Shown here: one piece after another, positions 41,729 through 51,452 of the stretch
How positions within the stretch are numbered: the stretch's first letter is position 1
How the letters are laid out: each line of letters begins with the position of its first letter
Assembly: GCA_000004695.1 (NCBI GenBank)
Contig: CM000155.2
Location: forward strand, 736,001-800,000
Direction: 5' to 3'
Length of the DNA stretch: 64,000 nucleotides
Source of the DNA: Dictyostelium discoideum
Lineage: Eukaryota
Position numbers and translations under genes: made by a program
Notes under the pieces: model-generated
What the model was told of the DNA's origin: nothing
The model's input: only the letters and a program-made list of their open reading frames with translations
Databases searched by the model: none

Positions 41729-43364
41729 TTATTCACCAAATACCAATTTTGAAATTTTTTGGCTGGAATCAATTCTTTCGTAATTTCCATAATTTTTGGA
41801 AGCCGATAAAGGATAACTTTTTCTCTTTTTTGATTGTTTTGTTGGTGTTTCAACAATTGGTTCAATGATTACACTAATTTCTATATCTTCAAGTTTGATT
41901 TCACCATTTTCAGATTCTCTCTGTTTATATTCTGGACTGCAATTATATTTTGAAGGAGTATAATTACTATTATTCTTGTTATTACTTATATTTATAAAAT
42001 TGTTAATATCAATACTTAATAACTTGTTTGGTGTTATATTTTTTAATGGCGTTTGAGTTTGCTGCTGTTGTTGTGGTGATAATCTTAGTCTATGTGGTGT
42101 TTGTCTTAGTAATGGTAATTGAGGTGTCTTTTGGATTGGTGATTGGTTTGGTGTTTTTGGTTGTGTTTGTTTTGGTGTCTTTTGGATTGGTGATTGATTT
42201 GGTGTTTTTGGTTGTTGTTCTTTTGGTGTTTGTTTTGGTGTCTTTTGAATTGGTGATTGGATTGGTGTTTTTGGTTGTTGTTGTTGTTCTTCTTCTGGTG
42301 TTTGTTTTGGTGTCTTTTGAGTTGGTGATTGATTTGGTGTTTTTGGTTGTTGTTCTTCTGGTGTTTGTTTTGGTGTCTTTTGAATTGGTGATTGATTTGG
42401 TGTTTTTGGTTGTTGTTCTGGTGTTTGTTTTGGTGTCTTTTGGATTGGTGATTGAATTGATGTTTTTGGTGGTTGTTGTTGTTGTTGTTCTGGTGTTTGT
42501 TTTGGTGCCTTTTGAATTGGTGATTGAATTGGTGTTTTTGGTTGTTGTTCAAGTGTTTTTGGTTGTTCAGATATTTGTGGTTGAGGTTGTTTTGGTGTTT
42601 GTGGTTGTTGATGATTTGAAAGAGGTAAAATAATTGGTGATAGGGATTGGTTTAATTTTGGTAGTTTTAAAGGTTGCGATAGTGATTGTTGTTTTTGTTG
42701 TTGCTGTTTTTTAATCTTTTGTTTTTTTGGAGTATTATAGATTTCTTTTTCTTGATCACTAAATTCATCGTCATCATCGTCATCATCATTACAGTCGTAA
42801 ACACTAAAATCATATTTACGAGAAGGTTTTGGAGAGATTAATGGTGTTTGACTTGTTCTGAAGCCACCAGATTTCTTTATTGAAGAGTTTACTTTTAATG
42901 GTGAGAAAGCGAATTGTTGATTTAATGAAGTTGGTGATTGAGTTTGTGTTGTAGTTGTTGTTGTTGTTGTTGTTATTTTACTTGAGAATCTATTATAAAT
43001 ATTTAAATGTGAAGGTGATGAATGTACCTTTGAAATTGTTCTTTTAGTTGGTGATCTTGAGAATGGATCTTTAATTAATGGTAATTTAATACCACTACCA
43101 CTACCACCATCACCACCACCACCACCAATAAAATCATTTTCATCAAATAAATTTAATAATGGTGATTTAAATAATGGTGTTGCAGAGTTATTACCACTAC
43201 TACTATTTGTAGAAGACAATAGAGGTCTTTTAATTGGTGTTTTAAATACTTGATTATCATCAATATCATCATTGCTTATATTACTAAGATTTAATGATGA
43301 TGAAGATGATGTTTCACTATCAAAACTTGTATTTAAACTTGTATTGGTACTGTTGTTGTTATTT

Positions 43365-43412
<48 letters not shown>

Positions 43413-43520
43413 GTCAATATGACCTTAATGATTTGATCAACTGGCCAAACCTTATTATTTAATTTTAATGATTTATTGGTATCATTTTTATTATTATTAT
43501 TATCTATATCTTTTTCATTA

Positions 43521-43603
<83 letters not shown>

Positions 43604-44234
43604 GTTATTATTAATTAATTGAATAGTCATAAAATTTTGAATTATATTAATTTTACAAGTTGAAGTAGTATTTGAGGAAGCAAATTGATTTAATGCAATT
43701 TGTGTACATTTTGTATTTGATAAATAAATGGTTGATAAAGAAGGGAATTGAAGAAATATTGGTAATGATTGATTTGAAATAAAAGAATTTGATAGATTAA
43801 TTATTGATAAACTTTGAAATGGTTGAATTGAAATTGAACCACCATGATTGTAATTGTTTAATTGATTTTGAAATTGTGTACAAATGGAATGATCTGTGAA
43901 TGGAACGTTTCTAGCTACCAATTCTTTTAGTCTACTTAGTACCATTAGATATTTAAATGCTTGGTCATTTAAATTCAAATTATTCGATATATCCAATTGT
44001 TCAAGTCTTGTCATAAAACCAATATACTTTAATGATCTATTGGTAATTCTACAACAATTTGATATATCCAATTCTGTTAACTTTGGTAACCCTTTTAAAT
44101 ATTTTATACCTTTATCTTCTAATTTATTTGAATTTGATAAATTTAAAAATCTAATTGTTTTAATTCCTTTTAAAAATAAAAATAAAAATAAAAATAAAAA
44201 TAAAATATATTAATATATAAAGTAAAAGTGAATG

Positions 44235-45061: not shown

Positions 45062-47638
45062 TTATTTAATAAAATCAATTAAAAAATTAATTTTAAATTC
45101 TTTTAATAAAAATGAATTATTATAAACAACATTATTTTTAATATAAACATTATTTGGAATTGTAAAACCATTTTTAATTGCATTACAAATTAAATCTTTA
45201 AATTGATTTAACATAAAATCAACGATTTCCAAATTTGTATTATCAATAGCTATAACAAATAATTGGAATAATTCTTTTTCACAATCAGTATAAACCCAAA
45301 TGAAATTTTTAGTTAAATATTTTAAAATTTCTAAATTTCCATTATAAACTGAAACTAAAAAGAATTTTCTAATCTCTGATATAATACCTTGAGAGATTGA
45401 AGTCATTCTCGAACCTGGTATAAACAAGTGTGATAATAAATGTGAAACAATTTCAATTTCACCTCTTTTAATAATATAATCTAGTAAGGAATAAACCACT
45501 AAATTTAATCCATGTTTTTTAATTAATTGATCAATTATTAATTTCTTATTCAAAATATATTCAACAACATTGCAATCACCATTACCATATTGATAAATAC
45601 AAATTAAGACATCAACAATCTCGGATTTATATCTATTATTATTAATATAATCAGGTCTATTATTTAATAAATAATGAATTTGTTTCAATTGATTTATTTT
45701 TAAAATATTTGATGGTGTGGAATATGAAAATTTAAAAGAATTTCTTGAATTTTTATGAGTATTTTCAACCAACCATATGAAATCATCAATTGATAAATCC
45801 ACTGGTAAATTATTCCAAATGTCTTGTATTATCGTATCGGTTTGTCTATCGGTATGATAATCTGTGAAATCATTCCAATTTGAAAAAATGAATTTTGAAG
45901 AATTTAATAATTTCACGGTATCAATACCATAGATAATAAAAGATAAATTAACCAATGATGTACTAATACACATTTGATATTCCTTTGGATAACTATTTTT
46001 AAAATGAAATGCTAAATGTGGTTGATATTTTAAAAATTTATGAAACAATTGTTGAATTTGTAAATCCACTGTAATGATTTCATTTTTATCATTTATCCTT
46101 TGTTTTATTGGGAATTTCTTAAACAATAAATCAAATACTTTTGGTGACTGGATTTTAATTGAAATTTTATTAACATCAAATACATTGAAAAATTTATATA
46201 GGTTACCACAACTACCTTTACCAATTAATAAATCAACAACTAATTGTAAATAATTGAAATTATCAATATTTATACAATAAAGTATAGTTTGAGTATTTAT
46301 TAAATATTTTTGATATTTATCAGTTATTTCATTTTTTGAATATTCACAAACTGCTTTCAAGAAATCTAATTGTTTTTCTTCTTCTTGTGGACAATATTCA
46401 AATATTTTAAATTGGACATTCTTTGAACATTTATGATTGAAACATGATACTTCACCATTTTTTAATATTAAATCTTCCTTTTTAAAAATACCAAATCTAT
46501 AAGATTTAAATAATAATGGTGATAAATTTGGTGAAATAAAAGATAGTCCTGTTGATGACAAGGATTGATGATGAAAGTATTTAGATTTATAAAATAAAAA
46601 ACTTTCAAACATACATTTTTCACCTTTTTTTCTATTAAAAATAATTAACATATTATATAATTTTCTAATCATATCATTTGATGATGGGAATTTATAAATT
46701 TCTAATTTTAAATTATTTTCATCATCATCATTAAAACAAAGTTTACATTTAATTTCATCCAATTCTTCAACTGATAATAATATATATTTTTCATTTAATA
46801 ATTGTTCAACCATAATTGAATTTTCACCTTTTAATTCATTTCTAATTAATGTTACATTTTCAATATTTGTTTGAAAATCATTAATATATTCTTGAATATA
46901 TGATTTTAAATAAATTATTGAATAACAACAATCCAATATTAATTTTAAAGGTTGTCTATAAATTTGAAAACTAAATAATCTACCACATGATAATAAAAGT
47001 GGATTGTTTTGTTGAATTTTTAATTTATTAATAAAGAAATCCAATGATTTACTTAAATCTTCATCTAACGGATTTAAAATTATTTTTGTAAATAAATTAC
47101 TAAGTTTATATGACCGGATTTCATTCTCTTTTAATGATAATAAATAAGCTGCAACTTGATATGACCCAATTTCAATTGAACTTTCAATTATACTATAATT
47201 AAATTGATGATTATACTCTTCAACCAATACTTGTATCAATGCAACATTATCAAATTCAATTGCAATCTTTTCCAAAAATGATGAATTCTTTTCAGTTGGT
47301 TTAAAATAATTTGGATAATTTAATAATAATTTTGAATAAAATATTTTATCATTTTTAAAATAATCAAATAAACATTTTTTTTTAATTTCTTTTAAAATTG
47401 ATCCTTTAAATACTAAATAACTACCTTCAATCACTTTCCACCATAAAAGGTATTGATAATTAAAATTTAATAACCATTCAACTTCAATAATTTGATTATA
47501 TTGAAAAACTCCAAATTTCATTGGTTCAATTATTTTAATATTTTTAAATATTAAATTTCTAATAAAACAATTTCTAAAAATAGACCAAAAATTATTTTCA
47601 TTTTCTCCATTATCTTTATAATTTTTTTTATTATTCAT
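45062..47638 (-). CDS. Hypothetical 858-aa protein. Possible ankyrin-like repeats near the C-terminus; no firm family.
   Basis: Uninterrupted ORF with an upstream A/T promoter-like tract. C-terminal segments look ANK-like (YIIKRGEIEIVSHLLSHL, VYNGNLEILKYLTKN, IAIDNTNLEIVDFMLNQ). The N-terminus FWSIFRNCFIRNLIFKNI is hydrophobic and periodic. All of this is weak. Confidence 0.55.
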   Translation of the reverse strand: MNNKKNYKDNGENENNFWSIFRNCFIRNLIFKNIKIIEPMKFGVFQYNQIIEVEWLLNFNYQYLLWWKVIEGSYLVFKGSILKEIKKKCLFDYFKNDKIFYSKLLLNYPNYFKPTEKNSSFLEKIAIEFDNVALIQVLVEEYNHQFNYSIIESSIEIGSYQVAAYLLSLKENEIRSYKLSNLFTKIILNPLDEDLSKSLDFFINKLKIQQNNPLLLSCGRLFSFQIYRQPLKLILDCCYSIIYLKSYIQEYINDFQTNIENVTLIRNELKGENSIMVEQLLNEKYILLSVEELDEIKCKLCFNDDDENNLKLEIYKFPSSNDMIRKLYNMLIIFNRKKGEKCMFESFLFYKSKYFHHQSLSSTGLSFISPNLSPLLFKSYRFGIFKKEDLILKNGEVSCFNHKCSKNVQFKIFEYCPQEEEKQLDFLKAVCEYSKNEITDKYQKYLINTQTILYCINIDNFNYLQLVVDLLIGKGSCGNLYKFFNVFDVNKISIKIQSPKVFDLLFKKFPIKQRINDKNEIITVDLQIQQLFHKFLKYQPHLAFHFKNSYPKEYQMCISTSLVNLSFIIYGIDTVKLLNSSKFIFSNWNDFTDYHTDRQTDTIIQDIWNNLPVDLSIDDFIWLVENTHKNSRNSFKFSYSTPSNILKINQLKQIHYLLNNRPDYINNNRYKSEIVDVLICIYQYGNGDCNVVEYILNKKLIIDQLIKKHGLNLVVYSLLDYIIKRGEIEIVSHLLSHLFIPGSRMTSISQGIISEIRKFFLVSVYNGNLEILKYLTKNFIWVYTDCEKELFQLFVIAIDNTNLEIVDFMLNQFKDLICNAIKNGFTIPNNVYIKNNVVYNNSFLLKEFKINFLIDFIK

Positions 47639-48432
47639 TTTTTTTTTTTTTTTTTTTAATTATTTATTATTTTAAAAATAATAATAATATAAATAATAAA
47701 GATATATATATATGAAAGTTGAGAGTTTTGTTTTTACCCTTTATAATAATAATTATTTTTTTTTTTTGGTGTTTTTTTTTGGGGGCCAAGAATAAAAAAT
47801 TAAAAAAAAAAAATTAACTTGCTATTATTATTATTATTATTAAAAAACAAAAATAAAAATTAAAAAATAAAAATAATAATGATGGATGTGTGTGGTATTA
47901 TTACAATTTTTCTCAATAAATCAAAAAAATGCTTGTGGTGTGTTTTTTTTTTTTTTTTTTTCTAATTTGAGATATATGGGTTTTTTATTTTTTTTTTTTA
48001 TTCAAAAATGTAAAATCAAACACAACCACCTTTTTTTTTTTTTTTAATTATTTTTATTATTTTTTTTTTTTATTTATTTGGGAGTTAAAAAAATAAGAAT
48101 AGTAATTAGAAAATTATAAATCATTAGATCCGGATAAGACCTATTTTTTATTTTTTATTTTTTATTTTTTTTTTTTCAATATATTTTAAACTGAAGGTAA
48201 TGGGAAAAATAATCTTTTTTTTATTTTAATTTTATTAAATTCCAAAAAAAAAAAAAAAATTAAAAATCAAGATACTTTTTTATTTGATTTTTTTTTTTAT
48301 TTTTTTATTTTTTTATTTTTAATTTTTTTAATTAATTGTTGGTTTAACAACATTCTTTAAAACTCTTCTAATATCACGAACTAGGATTAAATTATTATTA
48401 TTTTTTTTTTTTTTTAAAAAAAAGATTAGAAA

Positions 48433-48445
48433 TTAGATCTTTGGA

Positions 48446-48478
<33 letters not shown>

Positions 48479-50499
48479 ACAAAAATATACTTACTTTTAT
48501 GAGCAAAATGTTGAATATTAGTTTGTTTATTTTGTTTAAAATCAATTTGATAAGCCCAAGCACCAGATTTAACAGAACGAACATCAGTATATGGATTAGT
48601 TAACCATTCTTGATAAGCTTCTTCTACTACTTTACTAGCATCATTATCATAGTCATTCCAAGTTCCATGTAAATATTGCCATACTGGGACTTCCTTTGGT
48701 TTTTCAATTTCACCAGAAACTTCAACACCTAAACGGAAACGATGATCTAAAGCCAATAACCAAACGCAACAATTCTTTACATAACGACCAGTACCAGCGG
48801 AAAAGAATTGAGCAAACAATTTAGTGAAACCACTATCAATGACAACACGACCACAATTTGCGTCGACTTTAGTTGGATCGGTTGAACTGACCAACATGAT
48901 TTTATTACCTTGGGAAGAGGAGGCTAAAACCTCCAATTTTCCATTGGCAGGGGTGATATCAGCGAATGAGGAGATGGTGACACCTTCGTAGAGATTAACG
49001 ATACCACTGGTAACCAAATGGCTTGAGAAATGTTGTTTATCCAAACCATTACCAAGTGTAAGGTCTTGTTTACCTGGTTCGTTACCATCGGCAACTACAC
49101 CATATAATCTCTTTGTCACCCAATTACCTTGTAAAATATATGGTGCATTGTCATTCCAAATGAATAAACCTTTACCAACCTTATGATATTCTTCAACTTT
49201 ATCAGCAAACTCTTGTTCAGTTGTACTATTATCATTGACATAACCAGAGATAATCAATGCAATATCAGATTGTGGTAACTTGTTAATGAAATCCTTTTGA
49301 GTGAGTGCTTCAACGATTTGGAAACCTTTGGATTTCAAATCTTTAATACATTCAAGGTCTGATGCACTGTAGAATCTACCAATGAGGATTGTAAATTGTG
49401 TGAATGCACCTTCAACACCTAAATCATGTTCAACACCTTTTGGATTTGAATATTGATCAAGTTCAACATTGGTATTAATATGTGTACCTGCATTCTCTGT
49501 ATAATAATGAACAATACTTGATCCTTTTTTAATTGGTTGAAAGAATGATGGTTGTTTCATTACTGATTTTGGTGGTGCAGTAGTGGCAGTGGTGGTAGTG
49601 GCGGTGGCAGTGGTAGCAGCAGCAGTGGTGGTGGTTGCAGCAGCAGTGGTGGTGGCTTTTTTAGTTGATTTCTTTGATTTTGGTTTAGCATTTGCTGCTC
49701 TTTTCTTTGGAGTACCATCTTCTTTTTCTTCATCAGTATCACCACCTTCATTTTCTTCTTCATCATCATCTGATTCACCTAATAAACCCAATGTCTTTGC
49801 TTTTTCCATTGCTTTCTTTTGCATGTATCTAACAAATTCATCCATTTCAATTGTACCATTACCATTTTCATCACATTCATTTAAAATTTTATCAATTCTT
49901 CTTGTTAATGGTCTTTTACCCATAGCACGAATAACAGCTAAAAATAAAAAAATACACATACACATATATTAGTATTTTTTTAAAAAAAAATAATAAATAA
50001 ATAAAAAAATAAATAAATAATTACATTTTAATTCATCAGCACCAATAGTTTTACCATTTCTAGAGAATAATCTAAAAATCATTTCTAATTGTTGTTCAGT
50101 TGGACCAGTGTAATCATTACCAAGTAAATTAAATAAAGAAGCTTGTCTTTGTTTAGTATTTGAAATTAAATCTAAAGCTTCTCTAGCCTTCTTTCTAATT
50201 CTAGTTTCAATATATTTTGGTGGTTGAGTAGTATCAACTTCTTTTCTTTTATTGTTTGGTGGTGAGTTGGTTGAAACTGTTGTTGATGTAGTTGTGTTAG
50301 CAGCTGCAGTTGTAGTTTGACCATTTGATGATGTACTTTCAGTGGATGAAGTAGTTGGTGCAGTGGTTGTTGATGTTGAAGCTGAAGTATTATCAGTTGA
50401 TGTTGATGTTGATGTTGATGTAGTATTAGTAGCAGTGTTAGTGGCTTCAGTTGCTACATCTGTGTTTGTGATTGATTCAATATTTTGTTGTTCTGTTGA

Positions 50500-50502
<3 letters not shown>
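48433..50502 (-). CDS. EF-hand pair + central unknown domain + C-terminal WWE domain protein; 2 exons (50502..50025, 49937..48433), ~660 aa
   Basis: Exon 1 is a Thr/Ser-rich N-terminus, then …QLEMIFRLFSRNGKTIGADELK, donor T|GTAATT at 50024. Acceptor ttttAG at 49938-39. Exon 2 reads SVIRAMGKRPLTRRIDKILNECDENGNGTIEMDEFVRYMQ, a canonical DxNxNGxI…E EF-loop. A poly-Thr/Ala linker follows, then a ~280-aa region of unknown fold. The C-terminus reads VWQYLHGTWNDYDNDASKVVEEAYQEWLTNPYTDVRSVKSGAWAYQIDFKQNKQTNIQHFAHK, the WWE signature (W…W…Y…IDF…Q.N). Splice phases are consistent. Confidence 0.7.
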
Positions 50503-50530
<28 letters not shown>

Positions 50531-50834: not shown

Positions 50835-50915
<81 letters not shown>

Positions 50916-51014: not shown

Positions 51015-51415
51015 TTATAGTTGATGAACAGTCGAAGATTTTTCTTCCTTTTTAGCGATAATTACAACTACACCATCCCTTTTACCAACGGTTGAAGCAG
51101 CTATTGGAGAGGATAATCTAATAACCTTTGAAAAATGACCTTCTTGAATATCAGTTTGTCTACAATTTACTTGAGTATTTGGTACAGAGATTTCTGAACC
51201 GTTTGGAATTTGAATAGTATCTGGTAATGAGATAATACCTTCTAAAATGATATCCATTTGATTGACAGTGATTTTTAAAGCATTTGGTTTATAGAATGGT
51301 ATAAAAGCATAGATTATAAATGATTCACTAGTTTCAGTTACATTAACAGGAATACTATTCTGTTTAAAAAAGTTTACACAACTATTACCACCAATAGTAT
51401 TATTTTGTTTGTTTA

Positions 51416-51452
<37 letters not shown>

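Follow-up and report, generated by a model that had tools for sequence, protein, structure and literature searches.

WWE domains are understood mainly as couplers of poly(ADP-ribose) (PAR) to ubiquitin ligases or PARPs. In RNF146, Y107, Q153 and R163 contact the ligand (PMC10877565), and the hydrogen bond between the Gln and adenine is a feature common to all ligand-bound WWE structures, with the WWE domains of DTX1, TRIP12, ZAP (WWE2) and PARP11 having been studied as ADP-ribose/PAR binders (PMC11269756). A precedent for a WWE on a hydrolase-type domain instead of an E3 ligase or PARP is human DDHD2, a phospholipase that combines WWE, SAM and DDHD modules (PMC11269756). Among proteins with a class-I glutamine-amidotransferase-like fold, IFT52N lacks catalytic residues and binds its partners via a conserved hydrophilic surface patch (PMC4818760). 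Here, we describe DDB_G0291810 of Dictyostelium discoideum, in which an EF-hand pair, a central core domain and a C-terminal WWE form a combination that, judged from the sequences, is both genuine and unusual.

Within the window, i.e., the whole 64,000-nt stretch of DNA that was analyzed, the gene starts with the ATG at 50502 on the minus strand and comprises three exons (Table 1). The initial annotation had proposed two exons with a lower edge at 48433, which is wrong and overlooks the 17 final codons: position 48433 is merely the stop of an ORF that runs through the canonical GTAAGT donor at 48494, with intron 2 taken as coding (...KSKYIFVKFKKKK, followed by the stop). Joining 48495 to 48380 (acceptor ...CCTAG) instead makes the protein continue from ...HK into IRDIRRVLKNVVKPTIN and the stop codon. 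An error of this kind at the 3′ end might suggest that the gene was falsely predicted or that unrelated ORFs merely happen to lie side by side; however, we consider this almost certainly wrong. The two introns carry the canonical GT and AG at their ends, with a GC content of 8% and 10.5% compared with 32–36% in exons 1 and 2, and the spliced 657-aa product is identical at every residue to the deposited [quoted passage not shown] (P0001). Moreover, an orthologue search revealed the same order of EF-hand, central domain and WWE in at least 13 species or assemblies (44–94% identity), so the combination is not due to chance, and the three-module architecture proposed earlier is real and kept across dictyostelids. 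A scan of the window for RNA features, tRNAs included, returned none.

Table 1. Exons, introns and protein modules of DDB_G0291810 (positions within the window; residues of the 657-aa product)
Feature	Position	Strand	Description
Exon 1	50025..50502	(−)	Codons 1–160 (first base of codon 160); ATG, Thr/Ser-rich low-complexity N-terminus, basic helix, EF-hand 1
Intron 1	49938..50024	(−)	87 nt, GTAATT...TTTTAG, phase 1, 8% GC
Exon 2	48495..49937	(−)	Codons 160–641; EF-hand 2, charged/Thr-Ala linker, central domain, most of WWE
Intron 2	48381..48494	(−)	114 nt, GTAAGT...CCTAG, phase 1, 10.5% GC
Exon 3	48328..48380	(−)	Codons 641–657 and stop; IRDIRRVLKNVVKPTIN, then stop; completes WWE and supplies the invariant Arg that pairs with RNF146 R163
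Basic helix KYIETRIRKKAREALDLIS...	50128..50217	(−)	Residues 96–125, N-terminal of the EF pair; kept in every orthologue and in P0021, a relative fused to TerD
EF-hand pair	49816..50094	(−)	Residues 137–200, split by intron 1; EF1 loop (146–156) degenerate, EF2 loop (182–193) canonical
Low-complexity linker	49531..49803	(−)	Residues 205–295; acidic, then Lys-rich, then Thr/Ala-rich
Central domain	48700..49530	(−)	Residues 296–572, 277 aa; class-I glutamine-amidotransferase-like fold (predicted), no conserved Cys
WWE	48364..48684	(−)	Residues 578–646, split by intron 2

The EF-hand pair recognized earlier passed the Pfam thresholds of EF-hand_6 (29.0 bits; cut-off 25) and EF-hand_1 (25.8 bits; cut-off 25.4), and the pair model EF-hand_7 scored 29.3 bits, 0.7 bit short of its cut-off of 30. 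Specifically, a canonical 12-residue Ca2+ loop was found in the second hand only (DENGNGTIEMDE; the match to a PROSITE PS00018-type pattern spans D182 to F194), while the D. discoideum EF1 loop (SRNGK-TIGADE) is one residue short and begins with Ser instead of Asp. A regular-expression search for the loop showed that at least one intact Ca2+ loop is kept in every orthologue; which hand is intact differs by lineage, and some orthologues keep both. Intron 1 had been placed at the loop between the two hands; it does lie between both Ca2+ loops, but its exact site is in the exiting helix of EF-hand 1 (codon 160). In phmmer searches, the lobe matched calmodulin and troponin C (E ~1e-17), with which it shares the layout of a two-EF-hand lobe. 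In comparison with these proteins, however, the product of DDB_G0291810 has a single lobe with one degenerate loop in D. discoideum. Since this lobe is embedded in a protein of 657 aa, the UniRef name “Calmodulin” for the product is misleading. The adjoining linker gave only compositional Pfam matches (MUCL1 and Prothymosin), both under cut-off.

At the C-terminus, the WWE profile PF02825 scored 47.0 bits against a cut-off of 21.1 and was covered from position 2 to 67 of 67, which requires exon 3; the ORF-based reading cuts the domain short. In a two-domain model of core and WWE, built with 12 sequences only (pLDDT 72, pTM 0.62, core–WWE linker pLDDT <50), the predicted secondary structure is beta-beta-alpha-beta-beta-beta-beta, the order expected of a WWE fold. 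A profile of the 12 orthologous WWE domains matched the solved WWEs of DTX1 (7e-7), TRIP12 (4e-4), ZAP (5e-4) and PARP11 (1.6e-3), with only a weak match to RNF146 (E = 0.25). Alignment to the RNF146 sequence of 3V3L by hhalign paired Y582 with Y107, Y622 with Y144, Q631 with Q153 and R642 with R163; Y622, Q631 and R642 are invariant among the 12 orthologues, and position 582 is Tyr or Phe. The predicted module is thus a bona fide WWE that retains, from RNF146, the Tyr that stacks on adenine, the Gln that bonds to it and one Arg that binds phosphate, i.e., key ADP-ribose-contacting residues, in line with its initial recognition as a WWE.

These residues bear on whether the WWE reads ADP-ribose at all. 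The full iso-ADP-ribose phosphate cradle of RNF146 (R110, W114, K175) was not found in the orthologue profile: the first loop is shortened, an invariant His takes the place of R110, the position of W114 varies between N, L, F, Y and H, and K175 falls outside the hhalign alignment. The affinity for iso-ADP-ribose compared with ADP-ribose or ADP is therefore uncertain, and one could argue from the loss of R110 and W114, together with the weak match to RNF146, that the WWE is a generic interaction or structural module and that the protein has no connection to ADP-ribose. We consider this unlikely, however, since the domain keeps two Tyr, the Arg equivalent to R163 and the adenine-recognizing Gln, which makes the shared adenine bond, and since the top profile matches are studied ADP-ribose/PAR binders (PMC11269756).

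The partners of this WWE differ from those of the RNF146, TRIP12, DTX1, ZAP and PARP11 domains, in that no RING, HECT, DTC or PARP domain is attached. The initial view that WWE domains normally occur with ubiquitin ligases or PARPs was too strong, as the counterexample of DDHD2 illustrates, and WWE domains of the same subtype were also found fused to linker histone and to bactofilin. DDHD2 itself differs from the protein described here in its unrelated catalytic fold and in having no EF-hand.

Between the linker and the WWE, the central region proved to be a discrete and strongly conserved domain of ~277 aa that belongs to no curated family, consistent with the earlier remark that it carries no obvious signature. 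Residues 296–572 had no Pfam match at E ≤ 1 and no NCBIfam match at E ≤ 10, GATase models included, and a core profile run against sequences of solved structures gave nothing above background, the matches being de novo Rossmann designs with E ~1e-3. A match to BrxC, the sole one in an NCBIfam and PADLOC search with the core and its bacterial relatives, was dismissed at 12.6 bits. The AF2 model of the core (pLDDT 92.2, pTM 0.92) has, by structure comparison, a class-I glutamine-amidotransferase-like (flavodoxin-like) fold; the structures nearest to it are the IFT52 GIFT domain (PDB 5FMS/5FMR), OST48/WBP1, a ThuA-like protein (1T0B) and STM3548 (2GK3), at a sequence identity of just 8–16%. A catalytic class-I amidotransferase was rejected because the core has no conserved Cys (none at ≥80% among 125 non-redundant members) and hence no Cys-His-Glu triad.

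The modeled core is best described as a previously undescribed branch of the glutamine-amidotransferase fold that lacks the catalytic triad, and it is nearest to the non-catalytic IFT52 GIFT/OST48/ThuA/STM3548 group. In common with that group, it has no Cys nucleophile and carries a strand-loop of the “GG.L.(I/V)W.D” type in place of the amidotransferase G-x-C-x-G, the would-be nucleophile elbow reading W-(G/N)-D-N-x-P in the core family. It differs from the group in a conserved 45-residue N-terminal extension (D..NP.G..DLG.EGAF), in 16 near-invariant polar residues peculiar to it, and in its domain partners and phyletic spread. A few relatives gave weak Pfam matches to DUF4350 (1.3e-5; 2 of 73), ThuA (0.013 in 2 of 73 and 3.4e-6 in 1 of 70) and IFT52_GIFT (9e-4; 1 of 73), which may lie outside the core; the Dictyostelium core itself matched none of the three, even at E ≤ 1. 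We take the core family to be a sister of the GIFT/ThuA/DUF4350 group and not a member of it.

In comparison with the amidotransferases TrpG/PabA, Pdx2, GuaA, HisH and CarA, we infer from the secondary-structure order of the model that core motifs occupy matching places: W.IS after strand 3 (cf. “LSPGP”), W-G/N-D-N-x-P after strand 4 (cf. “G-x-C-x-G”) and D.GFT after the last strand (cf. “H-P-E”). Unlike these enzymes, the core has neither the conserved Cys nor His-Pro-Glu, matches no Pfam GATase model and is joined to no synthase partner domain.

A profile search with the core retrieved 1,352 clusters (50% identity) at E ≤ 1e-3 and 453 at E ≤ 1e-30. The family is marked by the motifs D..NP.G..DLG.EGAF, LKSKGF, W.IS, GxGLxxW(G/N)DNxP, HLxTxG, YEGxT, GRxxxDxGFTKL and AGTxRYxxNxxxWL. 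Over 125 sequences with a mutual identity of <60%, 16 polar residues are conserved at ≥90% (D320, N324, D331, K363, S390, D422, N423, N431, H466, E477, T480, R523, D527, T531, R544 and N548), all of which are present in the Dictyostelium core, while bacterial and amoebal cores share an overall identity of ~30%. From the strand topology of the model, we infer that conserved core residues are gathered in one pocket.

OST48 is a non-enzyme. Conserved polar residues are no proof of catalysis, because neither OST48 nor IFT52N is an enzyme and the latter uses its hydrophilic patch for binding (PMC4818760). By analogy, the core could be an inert protein–protein scaffold and the whole protein a pure adaptor that bridges ADP-ribosylated proteins to a partner in a Ca2+-dependent manner; the missing Cys and triad, as well as the weak matches of a few members to IFT52_GIFT and DUF4350, would fit such a role. 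However, the conservation of 16 polar residues between bacteria and amoebae at so low an overall identity is far above that of a usual scaffold surface. Moreover, the secreted and cytoplasmic bacterial copies are 50–70% identical, yet could hardly have a protein partner in common, and none of the conserved neighbors in the 66 bacterial loci analyzed (see below) was found to encode one. A purely inert scaffold is thus possible but not the reading we would choose; a Cys-independent hydrolase or a specific ligand-binding pocket has, in our view, a slight edge over it.

The family is present in Bacteroidota and Myxococcota, in secreted or cytoplasmic forms, i.e., with or without a predicted Sec signal peptide. 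Most members are bacterial proteins, secreted or adjoining signaling genes, or fusions to unrelated modules. Specifically, the 70 long members include fusions to EF-hand (n = 12), HSP70 (n = 9), ubiquitin (n = 7), WWE (n = 7), TerD (n = 4) and vWA (n = 3) modules, with TROVE, alpha-kinase and PARG occurring once each, while FHA, LIM and PG_binding_1 were found among the short members. Around the bacterial genes, synteny is local and tandem duplicates occur, and subsets of the loci contain kinase, phosphatase or two-component genes. Checked for a TerY-P-like signaling context, i.e., recurrent vWA, Ser/Thr kinase or PP2C neighbors or fusions, the bacterial loci show a protein kinase directly upstream of the core gene at L003 and L007, a vWA–core fusion near a PP2C/protein kinase/TerY_C-vWA triad at L005, and a SpoIIE phosphatase upstream at L011. 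Neighbor clustering covered 66 of 80 genome loci, the other 14 being omitted since the target gene was lost in ORF calling, with antisense ORFs in GC-rich genomes as the probable cause. Among these 66, a Ser/Thr kinase with TPR repeats occurred in 5 and histidine kinases or response regulators in ~7, and neither the clustering nor nine loci viewed singly revealed a universal gene partner.

This distribution also bears on the earlier suggestion of a novel domain that joins Ca2+ and ADP-ribose signaling. The two flanking modules are real and conserved, but the scanned family members carry a WWE in 9 of 143 cases and a PARG in 1 of 143. Because most relatives of the core are bacterial or fused to unrelated modules, any link between Ca2+ and ADP-ribose would stem from the flanking modules, and the structural check likewise points to an amidotransferase-like fold that has no intrinsic ADP-ribose link. 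One could still argue that the core itself binds or processes ADP-ribose or PAR, which would make the protein a self-contained, Ca2+-regulated reader and eraser of PAR, given the nine WWE fusions (dictyostelid orthologues not counted) and the one fusion to a microbial-type PARG catalytic domain (P0083). We regard this as very unlikely: none of the GATase-like structural neighbors acts on ADP-ribose, most fusion modules (EF-hand, HSP70, ubiquitin, TerD, vWA, FHA, LIM and PG_binding_1) are unrelated to it, and ADP-ribosyltransferase or macrodomain genes did not recur among the conserved bacterial neighbors sampled. Furthermore, many members have predicted Sec signal peptides and would act in an extracytoplasmic setting, which is not expected to contain PAR. 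Given that near-identical domains are exported by bacteria, ADP-ribose itself is an unlikely ligand of the core.

Taken together, we lean slightly towards viewing DDB_G0291810 as a modular signaling protein, with a conserved “output” domain placed between two small “input” modules. The WWE, carried on a linker modeled with low confidence (pLDDT <50), would target the protein to partners modified with ADP-ribose or poly(ADP-ribose); a Ca2+ response would come from the EF-hand lobe, possibly through action on the adjoining conserved basic helix; and the core would do the actual work through its conserved polar pocket, located at the topological positions of the amidotransferase active site (after strand 3, strand 4 and the last strand). 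A bolder version, which we consider rather improbable, is that the core is a new enzyme family on an amidotransferase scaffold with an Asp/His/Glu-type or metal site, gated by Ca2+ and delivered by the WWE to poly(ADP-ribosyl)ated targets in amoebae, and sharing ancestry with secreted or signaling-linked effectors of social bacteria (Myxococcota and gliding Bacteroidota). In the literature, we found no biochemical or genetic work on DDB_G0291810 or any member of the core family, and nothing relevant on TerD/vWA/WWE/amidotransferase combinations or on WWE with EF-hand in Dictyostelium; the core fold is not mentioned in the conflict-systems paper of Kaur et al. 2020.

Dictyostelium is an organism with well-studied ADP-ribosylation-dependent DNA repair. 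In DDB_G0291810, a WWE whose adenine pocket is intact by sequence is combined with a calcium sensor and with a different kind of output domain, which, if the proposed working is true, would imply a PAR-dependent pathway independent of ubiquitination. Should the core also be an enzyme, the protein would represent an effector directed at PAR for which no animal counterpart is known. With ~1,350 clusters at 50% identity, the core family is large; it has no Pfam or NCBIfam model, is common to amoebae and behaviorally complex bacteria, and is repeatedly joined to EF-hand, TerD, vWA, HSP70, FHA, ubiquitin and WWE modules; a family name and a ligand would annotate thousands of “hypothetical proteins”.

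Reanalysis of the minus-strand gene DDB_G0291810 revealed that the initial annotation had recognized a real gene by joining two adjacent open reading frames (ORFs; 49969-50502 and 48433-49965) into a two-exon reading at 48433-50502, but its coordinates and exon count required correction for a second intron. The C-terminus proposed previously (...HKSKYIFVKFKKKKKKKKNPKI, then stop) is read-through of this intron, and the true product ends in ...HK followed across the junction by IRDIRRVLKNVVKPTIN and the stop codon. The spliced product of 657 aa is identical to the database entry 'hypothetical protein DDB_G0291810 [Dictyostelium discoideum AX4]', whose UniRef name is 'Calmodulin'; the gene is, therefore, already known to databases as a hypothetical protein. 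Its surroundings are very AT-rich (GC of the window, 23%), and poly-T/poly-A runs of up to ~70 nt flank its 5′ end; very long runs of this kind are typical of Dictyostelium intergenic DNA. None of the five neighbouring long ORFs in the table below matched a Pfam family at E<=1e-3. An 858-aa neighbouring ORF gave a sub-threshold Pfam ankyrin match, and the 304-aa ORF at 51015-51929 carries long poly-Asn tracts.

Features of DDB_G0291810 and its surroundings (window positions)
Feature	Position	Strand	Details
Gene	48328-50502	minus	
Intron 1	50024-49938	minus	GTAATT...TTTTAG, 87 nt, 8% GC, phase 1
Intron 2	48494-48381	minus	GTAAGT...CCTAG, 114 nt, 10.5% GC, phase 1; missed by the initial annotation
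Basic helix	50128-50217	minus	residues 96-125
EF1 loop	50035-50067	minus	SRNGK-TIGADE
EF2 loop	49837-49872	minus	DENGNGTIEMDEF at residue 182
Core		minus	residues 296-572
Pfam WWE		minus	residues 578-646
Stop codon	48330-48328	minus	
Poly-T/poly-A runs	~50840-50913; 50503-50530		
Neighbouring ORFs	41729-44071; 45062-47638; 51015-51929; 52130-53107	minus	
Neighbouring ORF	55270-58833	plus	

The architecture itself (EF-hand pair, central core and WWE) is genuine, conserved and unusual. The combination is no artefact: it recurs in orthologues with 44-94% identity (first homologue search), which include several proteins from transcriptomes or metagenomes besides those of Dictyostelium dimigraforme, D. 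citrinum, D. firmibasis, D. purpureum, Polysphondylium violaceum, Acytostelium subglobosum and Tieghemostelium lacteum. Literature searches found no description of a WWE domain with EF-hands and an amidotransferase-like core. WWE domains, described in the initial annotation as normally accompanying ubiquitin-ligase or PARP catalytic domains, have a precedent for a non-E3, non-PARP partner in DDHD2 (PMC11269756). Other proteins (P0024-P0030) carry WWE domains 55-63% identical to that of DDB_G0291810, some with unusual partners, namely linker-histone H1/H5 (P0025, P0027 and P0028) and bactofilin (P0030).

The predicted C-terminal WWE scored well above the Pfam threshold (47.0 bits versus 21.1), with the full match requiring exon 3. 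A profile (A4) built from the WWE domains of 12 orthologues matched the solved domains of DTX1 (7e-7), TRIP12 (4e-4), ZAP WWE2 (5e-4), PARP11 (1.6e-3) and RNF146 (0.25). In RNF146, the adenine is stacked by Y107 and bonded by Q153, while the phosphates are held by R110, R163 and K175 (PMC10877565); all ligand-bound WWE structures share the double hydrogen bond between Gln and adenine (PMC11269756). After confirming that the RNF146 WWE sequence is identical to the 3V3L chain, we aligned it to the A4 profile. Y582 corresponds to Y107 (Tyr or Phe in the family), and the invariant Y622, Q631 and exon 3-encoded R642 correspond to Y144, Q153 and R163, respectively. An invariant His occupies the position of R110, the variable N587 that of W114, and K175 has no aligned Dictyostelium residue. 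Given this alignment, the adenine pocket is intact and the phosphate cradle partly remodelled; the domain is an ordinary member of its family, albeit with a cradle not fully kept, and on sequence grounds likely binds ADP-ribose or PAR.

The EF-hand module is also an ordinary family member, with the caveats of a degenerate loop 1 and a pair model below its Pfam cut-off (EF-hand_7, 29.3 versus 30); EF-hand_6 (29.0 versus 25) and EF-hand_1 (25.8 versus 25.4) exceeded theirs. The lobe matched calmodulin and troponin C at E ~1e-17, with a one-residue deletion in the EF1 loop in these alignments, and a PS00018-type pattern fits loop 2 only. Pattern matching of P0001-P0013 (the DDB_G0291810 protein and relatives) revealed that every orthologue keeps at least one canonical Ca2+ loop, although the hand alternates between dictyostelid lineages: the D. 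discoideum group keeps only EF2, D. purpureum and Acytostelium keep only EF1, and Tieghemostelium and a more distant relative keep both. One functional Ca2+ site, supplied by either hand, seems to be enough. Directly upstream of the pair lies a basic helix (K/Y-I-E-T-R-x-R-K-K-A-R-E-A-L-D), kept as ETRxRKKAREAxD in all orthologues and in P0021, a relative with a C-terminal TerD replacing WWE; it looks like a putative target peptide that the protein carries for its own calmodulin-like lobe.

The central region was correctly described as lacking an obvious signature, with no Pfam match at E<=1 and no NCBIfam match at E<=10. Its supposed novelty holds at the level of family and not of fold: the predicted model and Foldseek resolve it to the known class-I glutamine-amidotransferase-like fold, while the family is undescribed. 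Its structural neighbours (scores in parentheses) were the IFT52 N-terminal domain (16.3), OST48 (15.8), ThuA-like 1T0B (15.1), MetA (14.9), a Site-1 protease domain (14.8), STM3548 (13.6) and the catalytic amidotransferases Pdx2, GuaA, PabA, CarA and HisH (12-13), in agreement with the top Foldseek ranks (STM3548, IFT52N, TrpG and ThuA-like). IFT52N has the same fold without catalytic residues and works via a conserved hydrophilic patch (PMC4818760). Among 125 members mutually <60% identical, no Cys is conserved, while 16 polar residues, all present in Dictyostelium, are >=90% conserved: D320, N324, D331, K363, S390, D422, N423, N431, H466, E477 (100%), T480, R523, D527, T531, R544 and N548. 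In the model, S390 follows strand 3, D422-N423 strand 4 and D527/T531 the last strand; judged by strand order rather than coordinates, we infer that these residues map onto the oxyanion loop, Cys elbow and His-Glu of amidotransferases, respectively. The core shares the amidotransferase scaffold but fails the defining Cys-His-Glu triad, and it matches none of the profiles of its structurally nearest groups (GIFT, ThuA, DUF4350 and STM3548). We classify it as a new sister family inside a known superfamily.

When the core profile was searched against 1.84 billion representative proteins, 1,352 clusters matched at E<=1e-3, of which 453 reached E<=1e-30. More distant homologues join the core to EF-hand and TerD or to HSP70, or carry it alone behind a signal peptide; a Balamuthia mandrillaris member has EF-hands and core without WWE. 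Pfam partners among 70 long members were EF-hand (12), HSP70 (9), ubiquitin (7), WWE (7), TerD (4) and vWA (3), with single cases of TROVE, alpha-kinase, microbial-type PARG, Chromo, CCCH and HEAT. The 73 short members showed WWE, FHA and ubiquitin (2 each), LIM and PG_binding_1 (1 each), plus weak matches to DUF4350 (1.3e-5), ThuA (0.013) and IFT52_GIFT (9e-4). In one recurrent fusion, a nearly complete HSP70, comprising its nucleotide- and substrate-binding domains, is followed at the end of its profile match by the C-terminal core (locus L051 4243-6705; P0048, P0082, P0098, P0110, P0127, P0129 and P0143), with at least one case in a Planctomycetota genome. Two giants combine a core (1675-1947) with a microbial-type PARG catalytic domain at 198-308 (P0083, 1954 aa) and a core with a Ro60-type TROVE domain (P0119, 1304 aa).

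Named bacterial sources were Bacteroidota (Fluviicola, Crocinitomicaceae, Marinilabiliales and Mucilaginibacter oryzae), and scanning one genome from each prokaryotic species by pattern confirmed 227 core loci, mostly in Flavobacteriales, Bacteroidales, Cytophagales, Saprospiraceae and Myxococcota, with a few in cyanobacteria, Planctomycetota and Desulfobacterota. Bacterial forms are either cytoplasmic or, at ~305 aa in length, equipped with a Sec signal peptide, yet the two are 50-70% identical; tandem paralogues of the secreted form (L002 8983-9897 and 10001-10918) are 78% identical. This export, together with the majority of fusions being unrelated to ADP-ribose, argues against the stronger form of the initial annotation's idea, in which the core itself handles ADP-ribose; this is very improbable, the WWE and PARG fusions being the sole points in its favour.

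At two loci (L003 and L007), the cytoplasmic copy starts 1-3 nt after a Ser/Thr kinase gene within an operon of unknown genes. In M. oryzae (L003 7139-13795), a tight operon (vWA_4, unknown, Ser/Thr kinase, core, unknown and DUF4407) sits on a mobile element adjoining an NB-ARC/TPR gene; on a metagenomic contig (L007 4753-11764), the core gene directly follows the kinase, close to SMODS and Mrr genes. With defence- or mobility-like genes nearby (NB-ARC, SMODS, Mrr, relaxase and zeta toxin), these operons may represent conflict or signalling systems not yet characterised; neither they nor the core domain are covered by a PADLOC model. Elsewhere, a copy fused to vWA is located 5 kb from a PP2C/kinase/TerY-type vWA triad, and a different copy follows a SpoIIE phosphatase. 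Neighbour clustering of 66 loci found no universal neighbour but local synteny, and 19 extra adjacent copies as tandem duplicates; ~7 loci have hybrid histidine kinases or response regulators nearby, and 5 have TPR Ser/Thr kinases.

DDB_G0291810 combines one Ca2+-competent EF-hand, an intact WWE adenine pocket and a core of amidotransferase fold that lacks the triad but bears a deeply conserved set of polar residues; the core-WWE linker has pLDDT below 50 in a two-domain model (overall pLDDT 72, pTM 0.62). Because 16 polar residues are near-invariant and the secreted bacterial copies are nearly identical to the cytoplasmic ones, we lean, though weakly, towards a pocket that is catalytic or binds a specific ligand rather than a bland scaffold. 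The same evidence makes a catalytically inert scaffold rather unlikely, but the closest solved relatives of the core are non-enzymes, which both speaks for such a scaffold and keeps our preference for a pocket weak. More specifically, a new Cys-independent enzyme family, brought to PAR by the WWE under Ca2+ control, would be a long shot. The core may be the constant 'output' unit of the family, joined in evolution to a wide range of modules for targeting or sensing. In dictyostelids these would be a sensor of Ca2+ and a reader of ADP-ribose, a combination from which we propose that a rise in Ca2+ would lead the protein to act on ADP-ribosylated targets or in their immediate vicinity.
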